Below are positions 153-9,852 of a stretch of 10,741 nucleotides of DNA, in pieces (the first letter of the stretch is position 1; the number at the start of each line of letters is the position of its first letter). Below the pieces are notes generated by a model, which was given only the letters and a program-made list of their open reading frames with translations, was not told the origin of the DNA and ran no database searches. Made by a program: the position numbers and the translations under genes. Source of the stretch: an uncultured Pseudomonadota bacterium (GTDB lineage: Bacteria; SAR324; NAC60-12). Location: NCBI GenBank assembly GCA_913020725.1, contig CAJWCD010000121.1, positions 1 through 10,741 on the forward strand, in the 5' to 3' direction.

Positions 153-1208
153 ATGGAGAATGAGAAGATCAAGGAGTTCGCCGACAAGGTGTTCACCGAC
201 ATGGCTGGAGCAATGGGAGCCGGACTGGGCTATCTTGGCACCAAGACCGGATTGTTCCGGACGATGGCTGAGCAGGGGCCGATGTGCCTGGAGCAGGTGG
301 TGCGGAAATCGGGGCTGCAACCGCGCTATGTTGAGGAATGGCTGAAGGGGATGGCCTGCACGGGCTACCTGAACTATGACCCGGATGCGGAAACGTATGA
401 GTTGCCCGGGGAACACGCCTACCTGCTGGCCTCGGACGGGACGGATCATTTTGTGGGCGGGATGTTTGCCTGGGTTCCGTTTCTGATGAGAGTGGCGCCA
501 AGAGTCGCCGAGGCCTTTGAGCAAGGAGGCGGGGTGCCGTTTCAGGACTATGGAGCCGACAGTGTTGAGGCACTTGACCTGATGAATCGCGGCATGTACG
601 AGCACCGTTTTGTCAGCTACTGGCTTCAGGCGGTTCCGGAGGTGGTCGAGCGTCTGGAAGCCGGAGGTGCTGCACTTGATGTCGGATGCGGGGCAGGGCA
701 TGTCTCCCTGACCCTGGCCAAGGCGTTCCCCAAATCAAGCTTCACCGGTCTGGATTCCGATGAGGAATCCATCCGGCAGGCCAAAGCCAATGCGGAAGCG
801 GCAGGGATGCGTGAACGTGTCCGGTTTTTGGCGCAGACCACCAAAGAACTCGATGCCGGGCAAGGCTTCGACCTCATCACCGCCTGCGACTGCGTTCACG
901 ATTTTTCAAAACCTGTTGCCACGCTGCAGGAAATTCATGCACTCCTGAAACCGGAGGGCACCCTGTTCGTCATCGAACCGAAGGCGGCAGACCGGCTGGA
1001 GGACAACCTGAACCCGATTGCGGCCATGTACTACGGCTTCAGCGTGTTTCACTGCATGACACAGTCCCTCGCGCAGGGCGGTCCCGGCTTGGGAACCTGC
1101 ATGGGACCCGCCCGCTTGGAAGAACTCATCCGGGAGGCGGGGTTCACCCGCTTTGAGACTCTGGAACTCAAAAGCCTGATGAGCCTGTTTTATGCGGTTC
1201 GAAAATGA
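153..1208 (+). CDS. Class I SAM-dependent methyltransferase with N-terminal winged-helix region (Rv2258c-like)
   Basis: 351 aa; SAM motif I ALDVGCGAG, then FDLITACDCVHD and LLKPEGTLFVIE; N-terminal GLF...RYVEEWL and C-terminal SVFHCMTQSLAQGGPGLGT typical of this family; RBS AAAGGA at 142-147. Confidence 0.93.
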   Translation: MENEKIKEFADKVFTDMAGAMGAGLGYLGTKTGLFRTMAEQGPMCLEQVVRKSGLQPRYVEEWLKGMACTGYLNYDPDAETYELPGEHAYLLASDGTDHFVGGMFAWVPFLMRVAPRVAEAFEQGGGVPFQDYGADSVEALDLMNRGMYEHRFVSYWLQAVPEVVERLEAGGAALDVGCGAGHVSLTLAKAFPKSSFTGLDSDEESIRQAKANAEAAGMRERVRFLAQTTKELDAGQGFDLITACDCVHDFSKPVATLQEIHALLKPEGTLFVIEPKAADRLEDNLNPIAAMYYGFSVFHCMTQSLAQGGPGLGTCMGPARLEELIREAGFTRFETLELKSLMSLFYAVRK

Positions 1209-1245
1209 ACCCGAAAAACGAGCAGGCAACATCAGTTTCTATGCT

Positions 1246-1294
1246 TACAGGACTTACGCAAAAAACAACCCCAGTTTTTTGCGTAAGTCCTGTA
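1246..1294. repeat. Perfect 21-bp inverted repeat with 7-nt loop (terminator-like hairpin or minimal MITE/IS-end remnant)
   Basis: TACAGGACTTACGCAAAAAAC (1246-1266) is the exact reverse complement of GTTTTTTGCGTAAGTCCTGTA (1274-1294); loop AACCCCA. Confidence 0.9.
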
Positions 1295-1306
1295 GTCTTT
1301 AAATCA

Positions 1307-1327
1307 TTATTTAACAATGTTAGCATT
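1307..1327 (+). other. Putative integron recombination core site (attI-like) at the 5' boundary of a gene cassette
   Basis: TTATTTA-ACAAT-GTTAGCATT, with GTT at 1319; resembles the attI1 simple site (CCCTAAA-ACAAA-GTT); GTTAGCATT is the exact reverse complement of AATGCTAAC at 4852-4860, just after the gene's stop. GTTAGCA deviates from strict GTTRRRY. Confidence 0.5.
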
Positions 1328-1349
1328 CAAAACAAACAGAGGAGTTATA

Positions 1350-1523
1350 ATGTTCAGAAAGTTAGTAGCAGTTACCTTATTTGTTTCCTTCATTGCAATG
1401 GCAACATCTGGTTTGATGATGTTTTTTATTGAGAAACCTTCCTTCACAATACAAATGCATCCAGTTCACAAGTTATTTGGGCTCCTCTTGGTATTTGCAG
1501 TTATTGGTCACCTTCACAGCTAG
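1350..1523 (+). pseudogene. DUF4405-like small membrane protein, N-terminal half (interrupted near 1515)
   Basis: RBS GAGGAG just upstream of ATG 1350; MFRKLVAVTLFVSFIAMATSGLMMFF...HPVHKLFGLLLVFAVIGHL has two TM helices with His residues as in DUF4405; about 33% GC by hand count; ends at TAG 1521-1523 as the sequence turns GC-rich. Confidence 0.8.
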
Positions 1524-1599
1524 CGCCGCATCCGGCGCTTGTCCACCGCCGCTCTGCAACGTTTCCTTGCAGCTGCAGGGACGTGAGGTAGGTTCAATG

Positions 1600-1627
1600 A
1601 GGCGGCGTTTTATCGCCGCTTTTGTTT
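1600..1627 (+). terminator. Rho-independent terminator-like hairpin just upstream of the hydrolase RBS
   Basis: Stem GCGGCG (1602-1607) / CGCCGC (1614-1619), loop TTTTAT, followed by TTTTGTTT. Confidence 0.5.
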
Positions 1628-1646
1628 GCAGGAAAGGATGAAACTG

Positions 1647-3623
1647 ATGCCGATTACCCGCTTAGAGGTTTTGGAACGCACGCCTTATGAAAACGGGCGC
1701 CTGTTCGGTGCCGCTGGTGCCTATGAGCGGATTGACGCCATCGCGCATTATGTGGTCGATCCCGCGAACGGGGCGAACGCCGGTGTGGTGGATTTGGCGC
1801 TGGCGGAGCGTGGCGCTGATGGTTTGGTGCACTTCAGCGGTGACGTCACGGTCATCAAACCGGTCGATATGTCGGCAGGTAACTTGGCGTTGCTTCTGCA
1901 GGTACCAAACCGGGGCAACCGATCAGTGGCGCGGCTAAATTTGACACCCGTGGCGGCAGTGACCACGGCGGAAGTGGAACCGGGCGACGGGCATCTGTTC
2001 GAGAACGGCTGGACGGTGGCTTGGGCCGGATGGCAATGGGATGTGCCGCGTACGCCCGAGCGCATACGGATTGGCGTGACGCCGCCGCAGGTACAACCGG
2101 AGGCGCGAACGCCCGCGACGCAAATGCAGCTTCGCATCCAGCCCAATTCGCATGCAGAATGTTTTACGCTGACCGATCATCATGTCGGTGACCTTGGTAA
2201 TCACACGCCGATTTGCCCGCAATCCATGGACGACCCCGAAGCGCGCCTCTTGGTTCGCCGCACGCCTTATGAGGCACCGGAGACCATCGCACGTGAAAAA
2301 TGGCGCTTTGCAAAAGTCGTTGACGGCACCGTCATCGACGACGACGGGTATATCTGGCTTGAGAATGGATTTGAGCCGGGATTGATTTACGATGTTGTCT
2401 ATACGCCACTCGATTGTCCGGTTGTAGGGGCCGGGATGCTGGCGACGCGGGATCTTGCTTCTTTCCTGCGTTATGAGGAAGGGTCACCGCTTGCAGGTGA
2501 GCAGGTTCATGTGGTTGGCGAGGGCCAATCTCAATGTGGTCGTTTTCTGAGGACATATTTACACTGCGGCATGAACACAGATGAAGCGGGACGTCTGGTA
2601 ATGGACGGTGTCTTGGCGCATATCTCGGGAGGACGGCGGGGCGAGTTCAACAGTCGGTATGGTCAACCCTCGGTCCAACCGACACCTTCATTCGGACATC
2701 TATTCCCGTTCGCAGATTTGCCACAAAACGACCCCCTAACAGGGCGTGTTGGGGGTTTGTTGGATGTGCATCGGGCGAGCGGTAATCTGCCGAAGATCTT
2801 CTATACCGATACATCGGCGGAGTATTGGCGCGGCGACGCGGGGTTGAGCCATGCCAACCTCGAGAACGGCGGTGATGCTGAGCTACCGGACAATGTGCGG
2901 CGTTATCTCTTCGCATCGACACAACACGGACCGGGTGTCGCCGTCCTGACTGGTCGCACGCAGTTCGGCAGCGAGGGCTGCAATTTTTTGAACATTATCG
3001 ATTATCGGCCGCTCTACCGGGCTGCATTGGAAAACCTGCGCGCCTGGGTATCAGAAGAGTTGGAGCCGCCGAAGAGCGACTATCCGATGGCAGGTAAGGG
3101 AACGCGTAAGACGCGGCGCGAGGGCATTGCGGCCTTGGCCGTGATTGCTGGCCTCACACCGCCTGGCGCGGACGTCATGACGACCATGCACCCACTCGAC
3201 CTTGGCGCGGATGCGGAGAAGGGGATTGCCGTGATGCCGCCGGTGATCGAGACGGCCGCCTATCCCGATTACGTATCTGCCATGGATTGGGATGGCAACG
3301 AGACATCTGGTATACGCATGCCGGATGTTGCGGTGCCGGTCGCTACCCATACCGGGTTTAATCCCCGTAATCCGGAGACAGGTGGTACGGGGCAGTTGCT
3401 TGAATATGTTGGATCGACTTTGCCTTTTGCAAAGAATGCAGCAGCGCGCGAGGCTTCAGGCGATTCTCGTCTGTCTATTGCAGAGCGCTACGTGGACCGC
3501 GACGATTACCTTACCAAGGTGCGATCTGCGGCCGAAGAACTGGTGGCGAAACGTTATTTGTTAGCAGAGGACATTGAACTTTGCATCGAACTAGCGGGCG
3601 AGAGATACGATATTTGCGCGTAA
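1647..3623 (+). CDS. Alpha/beta hydrolase domain-containing protein (Abhydrolase_10-like, ~658 aa)
   Basis: RBS AAAGGA at 1633-1638 favours ATG 1647 (MPITRLEV); family motifs GAYERI, VPNRGN, GWQWD, nucleophile-elbow-like GQSQCGRFLR, TDTSAEYW, DGNETSGIRMPDVAVP, SIAERY...YL; no evident signal peptide. Confidence 0.85.
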   Translation: MPITRLEVLERTPYENGRLFGAAGAYERIDAIAHYVVDPANGANAGVVDLALAERGADGLVHFSGDVTVIKPVDMSAGNLALLLQVPNRGNRSVARLNLTPVAAVTTAEVEPGDGHLFENGWTVAWAGWQWDVPRTPERIRIGVTPPQVQPEARTPATQMQLRIQPNSHAECFTLTDHHVGDLGNHTPICPQSMDDPEARLLVRRTPYEAPETIAREKWRFAKVVDGTVIDDDGYIWLENGFEPGLIYDVVYTPLDCPVVGAGMLATRDLASFLRYEEGSPLAGEQVHVVGEGQSQCGRFLRTYLHCGMNTDEAGRLVMDGVLAHISGGRRGEFNSRYGQPSVQPTPSFGHLFPFADLPQNDPLTGRVGGLLDVHRASGNLPKIFYTDTSAEYWRGDAGLSHANLENGGDAELPDNVRRYLFASTQHGPGVAVLTGRTQFGSEGCNFLNIIDYRPLYRAALENLRAWVSEELEPPKSDYPMAGKGTRKTRREGIAALAVIAGLTPPGADVMTTMHPLDLGADAEKGIAVMPPVIETAAYPDYVSAMDWDGNETSGIRMPDVAVPVATHTGFNPRNPETGGTGQLLEYVGSTLPFAKNAAAREASGDSRLSIAERYVDRDDYLTKVRSAAEELVAKRYLLAEDIELCIELAGERYDICA

Positions 3624-4158
3624 AGTGACGGTCATTTGTGGCGTATTCCTATACAATATTTATAGGTGATGAGTTTATAATCACCAGGTTTTGCGTTTAA
3701 GACAGCGTAATCTCTTGTGGGGGACGGATTTCGCGAGAAGACGGCGTACCTTTTCGCAGGGTTAATTGCTGCTATGCCACCGTTGTGAGATAGCCGCGTC
3801 AAAACGGGTGTATCGGGCGACTCTGGCTCGACAATGCGGGAATGTTATTTTGGTGCGAAGGAAGAAGAGGCATTCGAAGATGTGCGAAATAATTTCTGCG
3901 CCAAATACAACGCCTGTCAATCCTGCGGAGCGGCGTCGAGCAGCACGAAAGTCGTCGGGCGTAACGAGTTCGATGACTCCGTGCAGGCGAATTTTTGTTT
4001 GGAGATAGGCGCTCAGTAGCCGCGTGAATGTGCTTGTTGTGCGACGAACTCGTATAGGTCAAGTAATCGAGGGGGTCCGCTGGTGCGGATTGCTGGAAGC
4101 CAGGGTGCTGGAAACCATGCAACGGCTGATGGAAGTAACGGTGGCATTATAGACGGCA

Positions 4159-4572
4159 TTAAGTGTCTCCCCCATCCCTTGAAATAGCATGCTGAATTTC
4201 TTCTTCCGGCATGTCATCAAAACTAGCGTAGTTCATGCGATAGAGGCGGGCATAGAGGCCGTCGGCTTCCATTAAGTGATCGTGGTCACCTTCCTCGATG
4301 ATGCCGCCTTCCTGCAAAACAATAATGCGGTCGGCGCCCCGGATGGTGGCGAGACGGTGCGCGATCACCGGGGCGGTGCGACCTTCCAGCAGGCGATTGA
4401 GGGCGCGTTGGATTTCGAGTTCCGTATAGCTATCGACGCTCGCTGTCGCCTCGTCGAGGACCAAGATTTTTGCATCGGCTACCAAGGCTCGGGCAAAGCT
4501 GATGAGTTGGCGCTGGCCGAAGGAAAGATTGACGCCACGCTGGTCAAGCATCGTTTGATAACCAGCTTCTAG
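4159..4572 (-). pseudogene. C-terminal fragment of an ABC exporter (MsbA/MdlB-like) ATP-binding domain, 5'-truncated
   Basis: Signature LSFGQRQ, Walker B/D-loop ILVLDEATASVD and H-loop IAHRL are present; Walker A, Q-loop and TM domain are absent; resemblance begins at LEAGYQT (~4572) and the first ~33 aa of the ORF-track call are unrelated. Confidence 0.9.
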
Positions 4573-4627
4573 TCCGAGGGGATTTCGACTTTGCCGCGGG
4601 GGCCAAACAAGATCGCGGGTGTTAGGC
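4573..4627 (+). other. Possible right arm of an attC site ending in a perfect GTTRRRY core
   Basis: ...AAGATCG-CGGGT-GTTAGGC, with GTTAGGC at 4621-4627; followed by a short leader with RBS-like GAGGG (4644-4648) and CCATAT; no matching left arm found. Confidence 0.4.
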
Positions 4628-4652
4628 TGGCTTTCACCAATTCGAGGGCCAT

Positions 4653-4829
4653 ATATTGAACTACCGTGCATTATTGAATCATTTAAAAACGAGATCAGTA
4701 TCCATACTTGGTGCAGGGTTAATTGTTATTTTTGTCCTACTTTATGGCGTATCACTCAACAATAAAGTTCCAAAAGAATTGGCAGAACCAATGGATGCCC
4801 TTGCTGCTAAAGTTGAATCAAGAGAATAA
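4653..4829 (+). pseudogene. DUF4405-like small membrane protein, C-terminal half (not in ORF track)
   Basis: Manual translation ILNYRALLNHLKTRSVSILGAGLIVIFVLLYGVSLNNKVPKELAEPMDALAAKVESRE*, stop TAA 4827-4829; completes the H-L-x-L-N motif, adds a third TM helix, and matches the AT-rich composition of 1350-1514. Confidence 0.8.
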
Positions 4830-4851
4830 ATGCAATGACTGCCTTTAATTC

Positions 4852-4869
4852 AATGCTAACAAAGCCATT
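4852..4869 (+). other. Putative attC left end (inverse core) of the DUF4405 cassette, truncated
   Basis: AATGCTAAC-AAAGCCATT starts 23 nt after the stop; TTCAATGCTAAC matches the reverse complement of 1319-1330 at 11 of 12 positions; no complementary right arm downstream. Confidence 0.5.
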
Positions 4870-4892
4870 GGGTTCTTGCGAGACCATCACCC

Positions 4893-5132
4893 ATGACTGA
4901 AATTTCTGCAAACCTGCCGGACACGCTGGGAGCTTCTCTTGAGTCAGTTGCAGCTCAACTTCGCCACCCTAAGTCGGAAGTCGTTCGTCAGGCAATCGAG
5001 TCCTATCTGGAAGATTCTGAAGACCTCACTCAGGCCCGTGAAGTCTTGCAGGACGACTCCGATCCGGCGCTGGATTGGGAAGGAGTAAAGCGTGACTTAC
5101 TCGATTCGTACCGACGGGAAGTTTATCGCTGA
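4893..5132 (+). CDS. Ribbon-helix-helix (CopG/RelB-type) antitoxin, probably orphaned; 3' end altered
   Basis: ISANLPD...LESVAAQLRHPKSEVVRQAIESYLED fits an RHH fold; acidic tail EDL...LQDDSDPALDWEGVKRDL is typical of RelE-associated antitoxins; the stop overlaps the recO 3' end by 10 bp. Confidence 0.8.
   Translation: MTEISANLPDTLGASLESVAAQLRHPKSEVVRQAIESYLEDSEDLTQAREVLQDDSDPALDWEGVKRDLLDSYRREVYR
5092..5110 (+). pseudogene. 5' stub of a RelE/ParE-type toxin gene
   Basis: AGGAG at 5081-5085, GTG at 5092, translating MTYSIR and overlapping the antitoxin 3' end as in relBE operons; the frame then runs antisense into recO and stops at 5190. Confidence 0.6.
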
Positions 5133-5908
5133 TTCGTCAGCAGCGCGTGGGATTTGGGTTCGCGTCCTAAGTGGCTGCGAAGGTAGGTGAAGAGGGCGCG
5201 GTCGAGTTCGCGTAGGTTGCTGCGTGTGGGTCGCACACCGTTGGAGCCCGGAAGTTGCACACGCGCCTGCACGAACCGTAGCGTTCCGGGCGCAAGCGGA
5301 GCCACGTCGGAATGCCGGGTGACGCACTGCGGGCAACGCACACCACCGAGCCGGGCATCGAGTTGATGCAGCATTTCCGGAACCGTTTGCGCTCCAGACG
5401 CGCCAGACGCTTTGCCCACCGTGCGATCACAAACACCACAACGCTCGAAATCCGGCAGCACTCCCAGCATTTTCAGGAAATTCAGTTCAAACACCAGCTT
5501 AGCTTCTTCCGGAGGGCTACCCGCCTCCAAGCGTTCGATCACCTCCAACAGAATCCGGAAACAAACAGGGGCATCCTGCGGCGGGATTTCCGAGAGCAGC
5601 GCCAGTTCCGCACAGTAACTGGCGTGGAGCAGGGCTTGGTAGTTGCGGCGCAAACCAATGTGGCTGCGGATCACCTCGGCGTGGTGGATGCGCACCATCT
5701 CTGAGTGCAGACGTTCGGAAAATTGGATGCGCGCCAGCACGAAGGGTTCCGAAACGCCAAGGTTTTTGGAGCGGATGCTTTTTGCGCCAAAGAGCACACC
5801 GGAGTGTTTGCCCTGCGTGGCCGCAAGGAAGGTGAGGATGCGATCCTTCTCCCGGAAATCGAGAGGCTTGAGGATCAGGCACTCCTCCTCATGCGGGAGG
5901 GGCATCAT
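5123..5908 (-). CDS. recO: DNA repair protein RecO
   Basis: N-terminal ILKPLDFREKDRILTFL...GKHSGVLFGAKSIRSK...EPF; C-terminal FELNFLKMLGVLPDFERCGVC...GGVRCPQC zinc finger; likely start ATG 5908 or 5905, overlapping the upstream stop. Confidence 0.93.
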   Translation of the reverse strand: MMPLPHEEECLILKPLDFREKDRILTFLAATQGKHSGVLFGAKSIRSKNLGVSEPFVLARIQFSERLHSEMVRIHHAEVIRSHIGLRRNYQALLHASYCAELALLSEIPPQDAPVCFRILLEVIERLEAGSPPEEAKLVFELNFLKMLGVLPDFERCGVCDRTVGKASGASGAQTVPEMLHQLDARLGGVRCPQCVTRHSDVAPLAPGTLRFVQARVQLPGSNGVRPTRSNLRELDRALFTYLRSHLGREPKSHALLTNQR

Positions 5909-7142
5909 CGGATTTAGGGGCCAGCAAGAGTGTTGCCGCCTCGCGCCCGCTGGGAATGAGCGACTGCTCCGGAAGCAGTTGGGCGGCAGCGGCAAGGGCT
6001 TCCTGCGCGTTTTCTTGACGCATGGCAACCAGAAACTTCAACTGCACGACGGGTTCGTTGGCCGCTTCCTCCTCGTCCGTGTCCGCCAAGACTTGAGCCG
6101 CGTCACCATAGCGTCCGTTTTGGTAGAGCAGTTTCGCGTAAATCAACCGCAGCAGCGGGGTGCGGTATTTGGAGCCGTAGAGTTCCCCGATCAATTCCAG
6201 AATCGACTCGCTGGCCCCGGAGGCGTGGTAGAGGTGTTCTAGTTCCTCCAGCAATTCCGGTGCGCCTGTTTTCTCAAAGCCTTTCTTGAGCCGCTTGGCC
6301 GCTTGGTACGCCTCCCCCGCGCCGTGCAGTTTGGCGGCGTCGCCGAAGACCTCAAAGAGGTTCTGCAAGGCTTTGTCGCGCTTGGGCAGGTAGTTGAGCT
6401 TCCAGTTTTCGAGACGCTTGGGCATGGTCCGGAACGCCTGCCGCAGGTGGGCGAGGTGCGCTTCGGTCAGATTCTCGACGACCACGCTCTGCGGAAAGCG
6501 TTCCATGAGGGCGCGTTCCTGCTCCAGGCACACCATCCACTCGCTCTGGGCAATCGCCACCTGCCGCAGTCCTTCCAGCGCCACCGGATGTCCGGGTTGG
6601 AGGCGGTCGAGTTCGCGGCCCAACTGCCCTGCCAAATCCCAGTCCTCCCACTCCAGCGCGGCCCGCAGGTAGGGCAGCAGCAGCTCCAGATTCTGCGGAT
6701 GCTGCTCCCGGAGCTTGGCGTATTCCTCCTTGAGCGCGTCGCCACCGAGGGCATAGCGTTGCAACGCCAGACTTTGCAACACCACCGACAAGGGCGGGGC
6801 ATCGCCCTGAATGCGCTTGAGCGCCTTGCGGGCCGCACCGAGGTCGTGTCGCAAGTAAGCGGTTTGAAAATCATCCAACCGCTGCTGCCACTTCGTATTC
6901 CGACGCGCCTGCCAACCTCCGCGAATCCTAGCGAACCAGCGATCTGGATGCCGGATCATCAAGTAAATTTCGGTGAGCAGCCAGCCCAGCACGAGTGTAC
7001 CCAGCACCAGCACCCACAGCGACACATGAATGCTGACGGGTCCGTAAAGCTGAACCTCGACGGTCTGATTGTTGATGGTGCTGAAGTAACCGAAGGCTCC
7101 CAGCAGTACGGTCAGCAGCGAGAATCCAAGAATGCGGCGCAT
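5889..7142 (-). CDS. LapA-domain membrane protein fused to a TPR-like helical region (paralog B, 417 aa)
   Basis: Two N-terminal TM segments flanking FSTINNQTVEVQL (LapA-like); helical repeats such as LDRLQPGHPVALEGLRQVAIAQSEW and LIYAKLLYQNGRYGDAAQVL; no C-terminal rubredoxin CxxC pairs. Confidence 0.75.
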   Translation of the reverse strand: MRRILGFSLLTVLLGAFGYFSTINNQTVEVQLYGPVSIHVSLWVLVLGTLVLGWLLTEIYLMIRHPDRWFARIRGGWQARRNTKWQQRLDDFQTAYLRHDLGAARKALKRIQGDAPPLSVVLQSLALQRYALGGDALKEEYAKLREQHPQNLELLLPYLRAALEWEDWDLAGQLGRELDRLQPGHPVALEGLRQVAIAQSEWMVCLEQERALMERFPQSVVVENLTEAHLAHLRQAFRTMPKRLENWKLNYLPKRDKALQNLFEVFGDAAKLHGAGEAYQAAKRLKKGFEKTGAPELLEELEHLYHASGASESILELIGELYGSKYRTPLLRLIYAKLLYQNGRYGDAAQVLADTDEEEAANEPVVQLKFLVAMRQENAQEALAAAAQLLPEQSLIPSGREAATLLLAPKSDDAPPA

Positions 7143-7164
7143 GGTGGTTTTCCGGAGTGGAAAG

Positions 7165-8370
7165 TCAGTTCAGAGCTAGGGGTGTGCGAGTCAGGCTCTC
7201 CTCCGACACGAGGAATCCGGCGGCCAGCATGGCCTCATCGGAACGGCCTTGCCGCATGGCAATCAAGTAGCGCAGGGTGTGGTAAAGTTCGGGTCGTTGC
7301 GATTCCGGAACCGTGACCGCCGCCAGAACGCCATCAGCGTCCTCATGTCGTCCGCTCAGGTAGAGCAGTTTCGCGTGGGTCAGGGTGAGGGGCAAGGTGC
7401 GATGTTCCTGCCGCATCACTCCAACGAGTTCCAGCACCTTCTCGCTCACGCCGGATTCGTGGTAGAGGCTTTCGAGCGCGTCGAGCAGTTCCGGTGCAGC
7501 GGTGCGGTCGTAGCCCCGTCGCAGCAATTCGGTCGCCCGGAAAAGCTGCCCCACGGCCCGCAACCGCGCCACCTCTCCCAACAGCGAGGGCACCTCCTGC
7601 AACACGCGATCCCGACGCGGCAGGTAGTTGAGCCGCCAGTCGCGCAGGTCTTCCGGATTCTCCTGAAGCGCGCGGATCAGGTGGCTCTCGTGATCCCCTG
7701 CAACCGTTTCGGCAATCGTGCTGCCGGAGTAATCCTGCAAGAGCGCCCGTTCCTGTTCCACGACCACACGCCACTCCTGCCGATCCAACGCGATGCGCCG
7801 CAATCCCTCCCGCACCTCCGGATGCCCCGGCGCCAAACGGTTGATTTCGTTGCACAAGGATTCCGCCAGCAGCCAGCGCGTTGCCTCCAACGCCCAACTC
7901 AGGTTCGGCAGCAGCACTTCCAGCCGCTCCGGATTAGCCTGTCGCATTTCGTCAAATTCGACAAGCAACTGCGCTCGCGTGATCCGGAAACGCTTCAGTT
8001 CCAGCAAGCGCACTTGCAGGGAAAGCGGGGCTCCGGAAATCCGTCCAAGCGCCCGGCGAGCATCGTCCGGGGCACAGCGCAGACACGCCTCCTCAAACGC
8101 TTCCAGCGCGTTCAAACGCCGATGCAGTCGCCAACCCTGCCAACCCTGCTGAAGCATTTGCAGGAAACGAGTGGGATACTTGCTGAGGTTGCGCGATTCC
8201 GCCAGCAGCAACCCTGCCACAAAAAACACCGCCATCACCATCCAAAGCTGAAGCTGGATCGTGAAGGTGCCGTACACGCTCACGGAGACGGTTTGGCGGT
8301 TCAGCCACGAAAAGTAGCCCAGCACCGCAAGCACGATGAGAACCAGAGCCAAAGTGGTGAGACGACGCAT
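7165..8370 (-). CDS. LapA-domain membrane protein fused to a TPR-like helical region (paralog A, 401 aa)
   Basis: ATG at 8370; colinear with 5889-7142 (GYFSxxNxQTV, LLP, PGHP..EGLR, EQERAL, WxLNYLPxRD, APELL..LE.LYH.SG.SE, AKLLY..GR). Confidence 0.75.
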   Translation of the reverse strand: MRRLTTLALVLIVLAVLGYFSWLNRQTVSVSVYGTFTIQLQLWMVMAVFFVAGLLLAESRNLSKYPTRFLQMLQQGWQGWRLHRRLNALEAFEEACLRCAPDDARRALGRISGAPLSLQVRLLELKRFRITRAQLLVEFDEMRQANPERLEVLLPNLSWALEATRWLLAESLCNEINRLAPGHPEVREGLRRIALDRQEWRVVVEQERALLQDYSGSTIAETVAGDHESHLIRALQENPEDLRDWRLNYLPRRDRVLQEVPSLLGEVARLRAVGQLFRATELLRRGYDRTAAPELLDALESLYHESGVSEKVLELVGVMRQEHRTLPLTLTHAKLLYLSGRHEDADGVLAAVTVPESQRPELYHTLRYLIAMRQGRSDEAMLAAGFLVSEESLTRTPLALN

Positions 8371-8385
8371 CAAACGGAATGTCGC

Positions 8386-8853
8386 TTAGGCATGGTGATA
8401 GGGTTCGCCGCGCTGGATGGTGAAAGCACGGTAGAGTTGTTCAAGCAGCACCAGCCGCACCAGCTGATGGTTCATCGTCAAGTCCGAAAGCCGCAGCGTT
8501 TGCACCGTGTTCGGAAACCGCTCCTGCTCAACACCATACGCCCCTCCGACCACAAACGTCCAGCGCGATGCACCCTGCACCGTTTCCTGCTCCAACCAAC
8601 GGGCGAGGTTTTCGGAACTGCGACACTCACCGCGTTCGTCCAGCAAAACCGTGCGCTCTGCAGGGTCAAGCCGAGCGAGCAGTCCCCCGGTTTCCTGAGC
8701 GCGACACTGCTCCGGATTCCCGGATTTCGCAGGTTTCAGTGTTTCGCATTCGATTCGTGCGTAAGGCCGCAGTTTGCGGAGAAAATGCTCGACTCCGGAT
8801 TCGACATAGCGTTCTTGCGCCTTGCCCACCCAAAGCAGGCGGATGCGGAGCAT
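8386..8853 (-). CDS. rlmH: 23S rRNA (pseudouridine1915-N3)-methyltransferase RlmH
   Basis: 155 aa SPOUT fold; IRLLWVGK, LLDERG, FVVGGAYG, LSDLTMNHQLVRLVLLEQLYRAFTIQRGEPYH. Confidence 0.97.
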   Translation of the reverse strand: MLRIRLLWVGKAQERYVESGVEHFLRKLRPYARIECETLKPAKSGNPEQCRAQETGGLLARLDPAERTVLLDERGECRSSENLARWLEQETVQGASRWTFVVGGAYGVEQERFPNTVQTLRLSDLTMNHQLVRLVLLEQLYRAFTIQRGEPYHHA

Positions 8854-8865
8854 GACCGCTCCAGA

Positions 8866-9645
8866 TCAAGTCGCGTAGTCGGAGCACTCACGGTCCAGCG
8901 TCCGTTTCCACGCTTTGAGGGTCAGGTCGGCCCCCTCCTCCCACTCGTCTGCAATCTGCTCGCTGCTGAGTCGTGCTATCTCGTCGGGGATCAGGCGGGG
9001 GGCTTGCCCGGAGGAGACCACGAGGAAGTATTCCTTGCAGACCACTTCCAGATAATAGAGGTCATAGAAGGCGCCCTCGATGGTGGAACCCAGCACCGTT
9101 ACCCCGTGGTTGGCGTGCAGCATCACGCGCTTGTTGCCCAGCGCGGCCCGCATCCGCTTGCCCTCCTCCCGTGCCACCGCGAGTCCGCCATAGTGATCAT
9201 CGTAGGCGATGTTGTTGTAGAAACGGCAGGAGTTCTGGTTAACCATCTTCAGGCGGTTGTCCTTGATGGAGGTCAGCCACGTCGAGTAGGGTGGATGCAT
9301 ATGCAGGATGCAGACGGCTTCCGGATTGCCCTTGTGGATCGCCGCGTGGATGTGCAGGGCCGAAAGCTCCACGGTGCCCGCGCCCGCCACCGTGTTGCCG
9401 TCTTGATCCACGACGATCAGGTTGCTTGCCGTGATTTCGGACATCAGCAGCCCGTGCGCTTTGACCAGAAAGCGGTCTGCGTTTCCGGGCAGGGCGCAGG
9501 AGAAGTGGTTGTAGATGCTGTCGTCCCAACCGAAGCGGTTCGCCAACCGATGCACGGCGGCGAGGTCCACCCGGAGTTGCCACTCCACCGCATTGATTTC
9601 TGGAGCGGTCGGTTTGCGTTCTAACATGCTGATTGCAGTGCCCAT
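8866..9645 (-). CDS. Class II aldolase/adducin family protein
   Basis: LRVDLAA..R, IYNHFS, EITASNL, HIHAAIH, metal-binding LHMH and NHG motifs; start could be 9645 or 9627. Confidence 0.92.
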   Translation of the reverse strand: MGTAISMLERKPTAPEINAVEWQLRVDLAAVHRLANRFGWDDSIYNHFSCALPGNADRFLVKAHGLLMSEITASNLIVVDQDGNTVAGAGTVELSALHIHAAIHKGNPEAVCILHMHPPYSTWLTSIKDNRLKMVNQNSCRFYNNIAYDDHYGGLAVAREEGKRMRAALGNKRVMLHANHGVTVLGSTIEGAFYDLYYLEVVCKEYFLVVSSGQAPRLIPDEIARLSSEQIADEWEEGADLTLKAWKRTLDRECSDYAT

Positions 9646-9852
9646 TGTTTTTCTTTTGTTCGTGTTTCCAAATTCCAGCAAAGACGACCCGCGCCTGTCC
9701 TAGTCGCGCAGCTTGCCCTCCTGAAGCAGTGGTTTTCGCAGTTTGCTTTTTTAGGCAAACGTCGTCATCATGGGAACCTGTTCGCTCCGGAAGGTCAAGC
9801 CGAGGTGAGCGTTGTTTCTTGAGCCAATGTGAACCCTCTTGAGGAGATTGCC

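Follow-up and report, generated by a model that had tools for sequence, protein, structure and literature searches.

We find that the gene for a DUF4405 membrane protein in an uncultured SAR324 bacterium is split by 3138 bases of foreign, alphaproteobacterial DNA lacking any mobility gene. Comparison with relatives of the donor indicates that this DNA lies in circularly permuted order. The split is real and is present in part of the population, as confirmed by empty and filled alleles that occur together in one independent metagenome (run X7). An earlier note, made from the window alone (the whole stretch of 10,741 nucleotides analysed here), had proposed the split; the permuted order, which it missed, is a new observation. 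The features are as follows, in window positions.

1319-1325, forward strand: 7-base core-site-like motif opening the DUF4405 unit, likely an integron-cassette boundary
1350-1514, forward strand: DUF4405 5' half, codons 1-55 of a membrane-protein gene (Pfam PF14358); GC 0.36
1515-4652 (equally 1514-4651, as one T fits either side), no strand: insert, 3138 bases of alphaproteobacterial chromosomal DNA; GC 0.57
1515-1646, forward strand: intergenic donor DNA from upstream of the hydrolase; its hairpin of 7 pairs (1522-1539) is also present in donor loci
1647-3623, forward strand: intact alpha/beta hydrolase gene (PF20091), 658 aa, with a second start at 1638
3624-3825, no strand: donor intergenic DNA, matched by donor locus L022 as far as 3758
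3826-4152, forward strand: luciferase-like (LLM) monooxygenase gene, 3' remnant spread over three frames
4159-4572, reverse strand: MsbA-like ABC exporter of the donor, last 137 codons (492-628), 92.7% identical
4572-4573, no strand: internal joint, at which position 9722 of donor locus L023 (ABC gene) is fused to its position 5097 (upstream gene) with no shared base
4573-4652, reverse strand: 80 bases of mid-gene sequence (codons 222-248) from a donor gene of 444 aa, which in the donor is upstream of the hydrolase and divergent from it
4653-4829, forward strand: DUF4405 3' half, codons 56-113; GC 0.35
4854-4860, forward strand: exact reverse complement of 1319-1325, a likely attC start, cut off by a host repeat

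The two halves of the host gene align contiguously to one intact 113-aa protein (P0183), with 55/55 residues identical between 1350-1514 and its residues 1-55, and 56/58 between 4653-4829 and its residues 56-113. This comparison with a full-length homologue, suggested by the earlier note, bears out its claim that removing about 3138 bp restores a protein of about 113 aa. The empty site for which it proposed a search is also found: a contig of run X7, with a shorter side of 30 letters, fuses 1513 to 4652, skipping 3138 bases and leaving one letter that fits both sides, within the 1-2 bp of microhomology claimed at most. No host bases were lost or duplicated at the insertion point. An X7 contig with zero differences over 1451-1593 crosses the left junction in its filled form, and the internal joint and right junction are spanned by a JGI contig (L055) at 99.0% identity over 3338-5351; a further X7 contig (3694-4681) extends only 29 bases beyond the right junction. 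In run X1, of which 58% was read, and run X23, of which 4% (17 reads) was, no junction was seen. Among the matches listed, 18 of 23 runs (10 studies) contain 0.84-0.94 of the sequence words, and one run is probably the source. In the filled allele, the 5' half reads two further codons inside the insert before a stop; this truncated protein is found on 55 contigs, and the chimeric right-end open reading frame (ORF) occurs in 10 variants on 16 contigs. In a comparison covering ten short relatives of DUF4405 and such cluster members as came to view, near-identical truncated proteins cut at this codon all carry the same two-residue tail, and with one tail only we reject a hot spot taking several cargos. 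The insert's joint was found with no other flank.

The insert is captured chromosomal-type DNA, as had been supposed: 3065 of its 3138 bases align to loci of Alphaproteobacteria metagenome-assembled genomes (MAGs) at 77-91% identity and thus leave no space for a mobility gene. The 27 ORFs of at least 40 aa in or overlapping it gave hydrolase and ABC families only (27/27; Pfam, PHROGs), and its ends agree at 3 of the first 25 positions, so that the reported lack of a transposase and of terminal inverted repeats holds. The hydrolase is 90% identical to Alphaproteobacteria MAG proteins and 32-42% identical to host-order homologues (12/12 examined), and falls within the alphaproteobacterial proteins with a FastTree support of 1.0. 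The only stretch longer than 6 bases without a donor match is 3759-3825. In donor loci L023 and L022, too, the LLM gene is either broken or missing in part. The hydrolase is intact as the earlier note described it, whereas its "unexplained DNA" resolves into donor intergenic sequence and the frameshifted LLM remnant, and its "ABC fragment" ORF does contain the 3' end of an ABC gene but is a chimera with host flank and 80 bases of another donor gene. A solved relative of the hydrolase was not found by sequence, the Atlas yielding a family name only; a sigma-70 promoter scan of 1200-1700 gave none; and at the insert ends six Rfam matches, all well under gathering scores, and no tRNA were found.

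Relative to locus L023, window positions 1521-4572 correspond to 5875-9722 and positions 4573-4652 to 5097-5176, in the same orientation, and 692 donor bases are absent at the point where host DNA begins. Homology at each of the three joints amounts to 0-1 base; a 5-base match near the internal joint lies 3 bases off and is judged weak. The donor order of 444-aa gene, hydrolase and ABC gene on one contig is found in 3 of 33 loci (L022, L023 and L024), which are the named loci closest to the window in the tree, while in L025, L026 and L051 the 444-aa gene is not upstream. No donor closer than 86% was found among 28 genomes of the donor family, and since the true donor is unsampled (best genomes 86%), the donor-side breakpoints are read from relatives; part of the rearrangement may be older than the transfer. 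No other donor pieces, including the missing 692 bases, were found elsewhere in the host genome.

Foreign origin, joints of 0-1 base and no mobility gene, which together define homology-independent (illegitimate) integration, are all found here. On balance, we consider it probable that a donor fragment of about 4 kb arrived once, and that it had been circularised and cut open at a different point before inserting without homology. Its release, from inside the 444-aa gene to inside the ABC gene, would have yielded 4626 bases as measured in L023, or some 3830 had decay of the LLM gene come first. Its ends, which are joined at 4572/4573, would have closed into a ring or formed an equivalent tandem repeat. 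The ring would then have been opened in the upstream gene with loss of the 692 bases missing relative to L023, for example by end trimming during uptake, and both new ends, which meet a single host point with at most one shared T, may have been joined there by illegitimate recombination or Ku-independent end joining. Of the options in the earlier note, illegitimate recombination agrees with the 0-1 base joints, whereas an unrecognised or trans-acting mechanism finds no support: the ends lie in ordinary donor DNA, one of them within a coding region, no end typical of an element was found, and there is one tail and no other flank. When illegitimate recombination takes place during transformation, a clean insertion that costs the host no DNA is unusual. 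A circular intermediate cannot be proved from one insertion, and limited searches found one form in all records seen and no free ring, second permutation or second opening point.

Entry would most likely have been through the host's competence machinery. The host encodes the DNA uptake genes ComEC and DprA, but such genes are widespread and are no proof that the insert entered by transformation. It also has a 301-aa minimal ATP-dependent ligase of Lig E type, above the PRK09125 cut-off and with a hydrophobic N-terminus. Ku was not found in the host genome (93% complete; control positive in Bacillus subtilis), and LigD models fell below cut-off, the one ATP-dependent ligase being that of PRK09125; on these grounds we reject capture by Ku/LigD non-homologous end joining (NHEJ). 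Delivery of the RcGTA type, prompted by the fragment size, is likewise rejected, as the marker TIGR02218 is present in 0/5 donor-like MAGs (incomplete genomes, one marker; control positive in Caulobacter).

The target would have been a dispensable, cassette-like accessory gene, which in our reading is why the filled allele survived and spread. The allele has persisted and spread within the species, presumably by descent and homologous recombination, and some copies, in one run only, are now undergoing trimming around the hydrolase; a deletion allele covers 1359-1563. The DUF4405 gene resembles an integron cassette left stranded, and it is in any case frequently broken. We take 1319-1325 and 4854-4860 to be its likely boundaries from general cassette anatomy; the motif pair has a chance probability of 0.00065 (20,000 shuffles) in a test picked after the match was seen, and the host repeat, at 4864-4890, has 8 matches in the genome. 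Among 64 genomes of the host's order, a search with the 55-aa half found the gene in the host itself alone (1/64), and it was not found in plasmids.

The permuted order could also arise without a ring, if 3058 and 80 bases of one donor's DNA, as two linear pieces, were end-joined successively into one host break. Such patching would fit three joints of 0-1 base and no host loss, and the relevant passages on Sinorhizobium describe two cassettes caught in one break by NHEJ (PMC6379672). However, in the donor the 80-base piece lies a mere 692 bases upstream of where the large piece starts, and its orientation is kept; a ring requires this nearness and orientation and random patching does not. With Ku not found and LigD not above cut-off in a host genome 93% complete, we regard two-piece patching as unlikely.

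Alternatively, the cargo could have been captured and permuted first in another carrier, either a recipient or a larger mobile element, and have reached the DUF4405 gene second-hand. A contig of run X19 is about 95% identical to the window over 1614-4548, has the same decayed LLM arrangement, and is flanked on its left by 2.1 kb of dissimilar DNA. Of the 15 listed differences, 12 are X19-specific, and the changes tend towards A/T, with all 17 gap letters in 3801-4100 and none in the hydrolase. But the window retains about 90 more left donor bases than X19 and is nearer the donors at 12/15 sites, so it was not derived from the X19 copy. Moreover, the X19 contig ends 24 bases before the internal joint, its flank motif occurs in 0/64 host-order and 0/91 donor-order genomes and in no viral contigs, and the whole insert is unmatched in plasmids or phages. 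We regard capture by another carrier as quite unlikely. A viral or plasmid vehicle is rejected, as viral-contig scans were empty and plasmids and phages gave only generic ABC matches (60-90% over small parts).

A dedicated recombinase or transposase acting in trans through cryptic sites (a tyrosine recombinase, IS200 TnpA, IS110 or integron integrase) would explain the lack of both host loss and duplication; in the host genome there are 8 matches to tyrosine recombinases and 2 fragments of IS200 type, and the left end has a hairpin 7 bases in from it. That hairpin, however, is native donor sequence, while the right end lies mid-gene and folds no better than shuffles, the insert ends match nothing else in the host genome, IS110 is not found and the host integron integrase is broken. 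The loss of 692 bases is unlike a conservative crossover, and there is a single site with a single cargo, which makes an enzyme in trans very doubtful. Among specific elements, a DDE-type insertion sequence or transposon is rejected (no transposase in 27/27 ORFs, 3/25 end positions in agreement, 1 shared base against the empty site), as are an integrative element or genomic island (no integrase, att direct repeats, tRNA or conserved-gene target), a non-autonomous IS200/IS605 (HUH) derivative (unstructured right end, no match to host IS200 copies), and the insert itself as an integron cassette (ends in intergenic and mid-gene donor DNA; host IntI a broken fragment below cut-off). An IS110 bridge-RNA element is expected to leave a dinucleotide core at both junctions; it is rejected with PF02371 not found in the 93% complete genome and one shared base only. 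A Y2 transposase (IS91/ISCR) gave no match in host or element, and the control genomes were equally without match. Finally, although the genome is a 204-contig assembly and no single contig compared covers the whole stretch, an assembly chimera of co-occurring SAR324 and alphaproteobacterial DNA can hardly be right, as the earlier note also held, because the JGI, ENA, Logan and NCBI records repeat identical junctions, the empty and the filled allele occur in a single run, filled alleles have polymorphisms of their own, and the closest known donor, at 86%, leaves none nearer to supply the reads.

Capture-type insertion by Ku-independent end joining is reportedly known in E. coli, and double illegitimate recombination is said to occur in Acinetobacter baylyi, in which larger illegitimate events usually replace host DNA; here, in contrast, 3138 bases came in and none went out. 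The A. baylyi events resemble ours in their two homology-free joints and in a host with ComEC and DprA, and the passages concerned give SPDIR patches of about 3-100 bases with extended microhomology (bioRxiv 10.1101/2023.11.22.568220). Ku/LigD capture in Sinorhizobium, proposed in the report on it as a transfer route between distant taxa, likewise places unrelated DNA at one point without homology; unlike the SAR324 case, in which Ku was not found, these laboratory captures use an induced break and a linear cassette, and the passages concerned contain no description of permutation (PMC6379672). Lig E of competent Gram-negatives, the family of the host's 301-aa ligase, is described in the relevant sections of a preprint as rejoining nicked or cohesive-ended extracellular DNA before uptake; in contrast to ring closure, those sections show repair of the original break, with no ring closure or mis-joining in them, and the preprint nowhere uses the word "blunt" (bioRxiv 10.64898/2026.03.22.713542). 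It is a long shot that, in SAR324 and other competent bacteria of the sea, a Lig E-type ligase in the periplasm rings environmental DNA, uptake reopens the ring at a new point, and the permuted strand integrates scarlessly without homology or mobile element, the hydrolase delivered here now coming under the expression signals of the broken host gene. If so, permuted mobility-free inserts would be the genomic signature of a Lig E ring route for cross-phylum capture.

How genes pass between distant bacterial groups without a mobile element or homology has long been asked, and it is seldom that such an event is caught while its two junctions are still intact. In this case wild populations show the empty and the filled site, the donor neighbourhood and also alleles trimmed later. 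In the openly accessible literature searched, for most hits at the level of listings, we found no chromosomal insert of permuted order and without mobility genes that had been reported from a bacterium with an empty allele. The closest likeness is "region B" of wine yeast, which, in the parts of the report that bear on it, is also a foreign chromosomal segment without a mobility gene, in permuted organisation, with breakpoints sharing little or no sequence and a junction site generally unchanged; there, the circle is proved by the existence of eight forms together with a working origin of replication (Galeote et al. 2011, PMC3053389). Unlike that eukaryotic case, the SAR324 insert is bacterial, has one form only and has lost part of the ring. 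Should it be a lone accident, it would be a clean natural cross-phylum transfer seen at base resolution and not a new system. Permuted order is a signature that can be counted, and if it proves common in mobility-free inserts, rings would matter in bacteria as they do in yeast.

The insertion into the DUF4405 membrane-protein gene is real, young, widespread and cross-phylum. The earlier note had proposed that a genuine gene is split by about 3.1 kb, and this holds: the Pfam match to DUF4405 covers bases 1350-1514, intact 113-aa relatives are common (465 matches), and one of them, P0183, aligns contiguously with both halves, being identical at 55 of 55 residues on the left and 56 of 58 on the right, with zero residues missing between. 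Contigs of metagenome run X7 carry both the empty site, where 1513 is joined to 4652 with 3138 bases skipped and one letter fitting both sides, and the filled left junction (contig 1451-1593). Another X7 contig (3694-4681) spans the internal joint at 4572/4573 and extends only 29 bases beyond the right junction; the JGI contig L055 spans both of these at 99.0% over 3338-5351. The truncated 57-aa protein is found on 55 contigs and the chimeric right-end ORF on 16, in 10 variants. Words of 1200-5000 are present at a fraction of 0.84-0.94 in 18 of the 23 runs listed, from 10 studies, one of these 18 probably being the source of the assembly; runs containing the window are mostly marine or seawater metagenomes. 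The junctions were not seen in two of the four runs compared, X1 (58% read) and X23 (4% read, 17 reads).

Judged by its sequence, the insert is alphaproteobacterial chromosomal DNA. A scan of species genomes for its alpha/beta hydrolase returned 33 loci, of which the top two are Alphaproteobacteria MAGs with 90% protein identity. The window hydrolase nests with Alphaproteobacteria MAG proteins in a FastTree tree of 49 proteins (support 1.0), and all 12 host-order homologues examined, including the host's own paralogue, lie outside that clade at 32-42% identity. Of the 3138 insert bases, 3065 align at 77-91% to three donor-like loci, and only 1515-1520 and 3759-3825 lack a donor match. The DNA that the earlier note called unexplained consists of intergenic donor sequence and, with frameshifts, the 3' part of an LLM monooxygenase gene; this gene is broken in donor-like locus L023 too, and part of it is missing in L022. 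The earlier note's observation that the insert has no mobility gene was borne out, as searches with all 27 ORFs of at least 40 aa returned only hydrolase and ABC families from Pfam and PHROGs, and the insert has no terminal inverted repeat. Since none of the 28 genomes of the donor family exceeds 86%, the actual donor is unsampled.

Window 1521-4572 corresponds to L023 5875-9722, whereas 4573-4652 matches L023 5097-5176, where codons 222-248 of a divergent 444-aa gene upstream of the hydrolase lie. The order 444-aa gene, hydrolase, ABC exporter occurs on one contig in three of the 33 loci (L022, L023 and L024), the named loci closest to the window hydrolase in the tree; L025, L026 and L051 have an ABC gene downstream of the hydrolase without the upstream 444-aa gene. 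The insert can therefore be read as a donor segment with its far end fused to its near end, then opened some 80 bases beyond the fusion. At the opening point 692 donor bases were lost, and they are not elsewhere in the host assembly. Zero bases are common to both sides of the internal joint, and the outer junctions share at most one T each with the host. A hairpin near the left end also occurs in donors; the right end falls within a gene and is unstructured. The 444-aa gene itself (L023:4505-5839) has no Pfam or NCBIfam match; its Atlas neighbours are automatically named "TonB-dependent receptor family" and share no common family, and there is a weak lead to cytidylyltransferase-like proteins.

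Foreign origin, permutation, the 692-base loss and homology-free joints are shown, in a single form and with no loss of host sequence. Because the small piece stems from just upstream in the same orientation, the intermediate was presumably a ring or tandem repeat of the donor segment, which would have entered the host by transformation and integrated via illegitimate recombination or Ku-independent end joining. We regard a one-off homology-free capture via a ring-like intermediate as the best explanation, with slightly better than even confidence. The interpretation in the earlier note is partly supported: it had also read the insert as near-precise captured chromosomal DNA, and its illegitimate recombination survives, while its unrecognised or trans-acting mechanism found no support. 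Among eight tyrosine-recombinase matches in the host is a broken integron integrase (G000:C21:4187-4741); two IS200 fragments are present as well, and nothing links the insert ends to any of these. A search for IS91 gave no match in the host, nor in the control genomes. Neither Ku nor IS110 was found in the host genome (3.45 Mb, 204 contigs, 93% complete; the window is the entire contig C121), and a GTA marker is absent from all five donor-like MAGs.

The host carries the competence genes ComEC and DprA. Its 301-aa minimal ATP-dependent ligase passes the PRK09125 cut-off, has minimal bacterial ligases as nearest PDB relatives and has a hydrophobic N-terminus; this Lig E-type gene (L112:1306-2211, G000:C40) adjoins the end of a valyl-tRNA-synthetase-like gene. 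In Neisseria, Lig E rejoins external DNA that is nicked or has cohesive ends (bioRxiv 10.64898/2026.03.22.713542). By extrapolation, such a ligase could also close DNA into rings.

The DUF4405 target behaves like dispensable accessory DNA. It is AT-rich (GC 0.35-0.36 vs 0.57 for the insert), and a half-gene query found it in just one of the 64 host-order genomes. Several uninterrupted alleles stop early or shift frame (P0032-P0034, P0200); contig ends or sequencing errors may account for some of these. A near-identical intact protein, P0187, is named from Candidatus Lambdaproteobacteria, which we take to be SAR324. By a test chosen post hoc, a 7-base motif (1319-1325) and its exact reverse complement (4854-4860) flank the gene where the boundaries of an integron cassette would lie. 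The gene resembles an integron cassette left stranded, its attC site cut off by a host repeat (4864-4890). Its surroundings in the window are as follows.

1-55, repeat with 48 matches in the genome, frequently at contig ends; its apparent end closes the truncated DUF4405 variant P0200 and precedes variant P0199
153-1208, methyltransferase gene; at that place sister genome G002 (L094:5641-5882) has only the last 244 bases, at 91%, near a contig end
1246-1294, inverted repeat of 21 perfect pairs (z = -10.7), a small REP- or MITE-like element; at least four further copies of a 33-base part occur in G002
4893-5132, ribbon-helix-helix (CopG-type) gene standing alone, its end overlapping the recO end; a toxin partner was not seen
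5889-7142 and 7165-8373, two paralogues in tandem, 1234 bases apart, adjoining recO and an RlmH-like gene; the N-termini are LapA/HemY-like, the C-termini TPR-like

The genes after recO in sister genomes G001 and G002 differ from the window's. Elsewhere in the host, a CRISPR-repeat-like 36-base sequence stands in two copies directly after an IS200 transposase end (G000:C145:215-300).

Run X7 also contains a third allele, in which 1358 is joined to 1564, the letters in between not being read. Given a clean join, the DUF4405 start would open a short ORF in its own frame, ending in a stop that overlaps the hydrolase start at 1638; that frame is expected by chance one time in three, and hydrolase translation could then be coupled to the DUF4405 start. 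Depth on the hydrolase contig is roughly double that on either junction contig, depths in this one run not being cell shares, and further forms in the same run are marked by contig ends hanging loose at 3660 and 3729. With 3 mismatches in 25, the end at 3660 is similar to that of L056, a host element of about 160 bases with inverted ends (G000:C57, about 12065-12225), and sits inside a small palindrome (3651-3669).

Near-identical hydrolase copies differ from the window's by 0-2 residues (six compared), and the dN/dS of 0.10 against donors reflects mostly time spent in the donor. Counting against a simple story is a 5034-base contig of run X19, about 95% identical over 1614-4548 with a different left flank; it may belong to a relative of the donor or to a second recipient. 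Of the 15 listed differences from the window, 12 are specific to X19, and all 17 gap letters fall outside the hydrolase, which is indel-free. The copy is A/T-drifting; its 2.1-kb left flank has no match in 64 host-order genomes, 91 donor-order genomes or viral contigs.

The insert does not qualify as an insertion sequence or transposon, an integrative element, an IS200/IS605 derivative, an IS110 element or an integron cassette, and searches of the open-access literature brought up no bacterial case with both permuted order and an empty allele. Distant transfer into SAR324, chiefly from Pseudomonadota among others, is reported in bulk in PMC13691129. The N50 of seawater vesicle DNA is about 3 kb (PMC11876622), and vesicles are a possible alternative carrier of the cargo. 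The insert is far larger than SPDIR patches. Its homology-free insertion is like the bacterial end-joining capture of foreign DNA outlined in PMC6379672, but unlike NHEJ it sits in a host with no Ku detected in the 93% complete genome. PMC3053389 presents wine yeast region B as a circle-mediated, non-homologous integration. The SAR324 insert, seen in one form where several forms establish the circle in yeast, resembles region B in its non-homologous and presumably circle-mediated integration.
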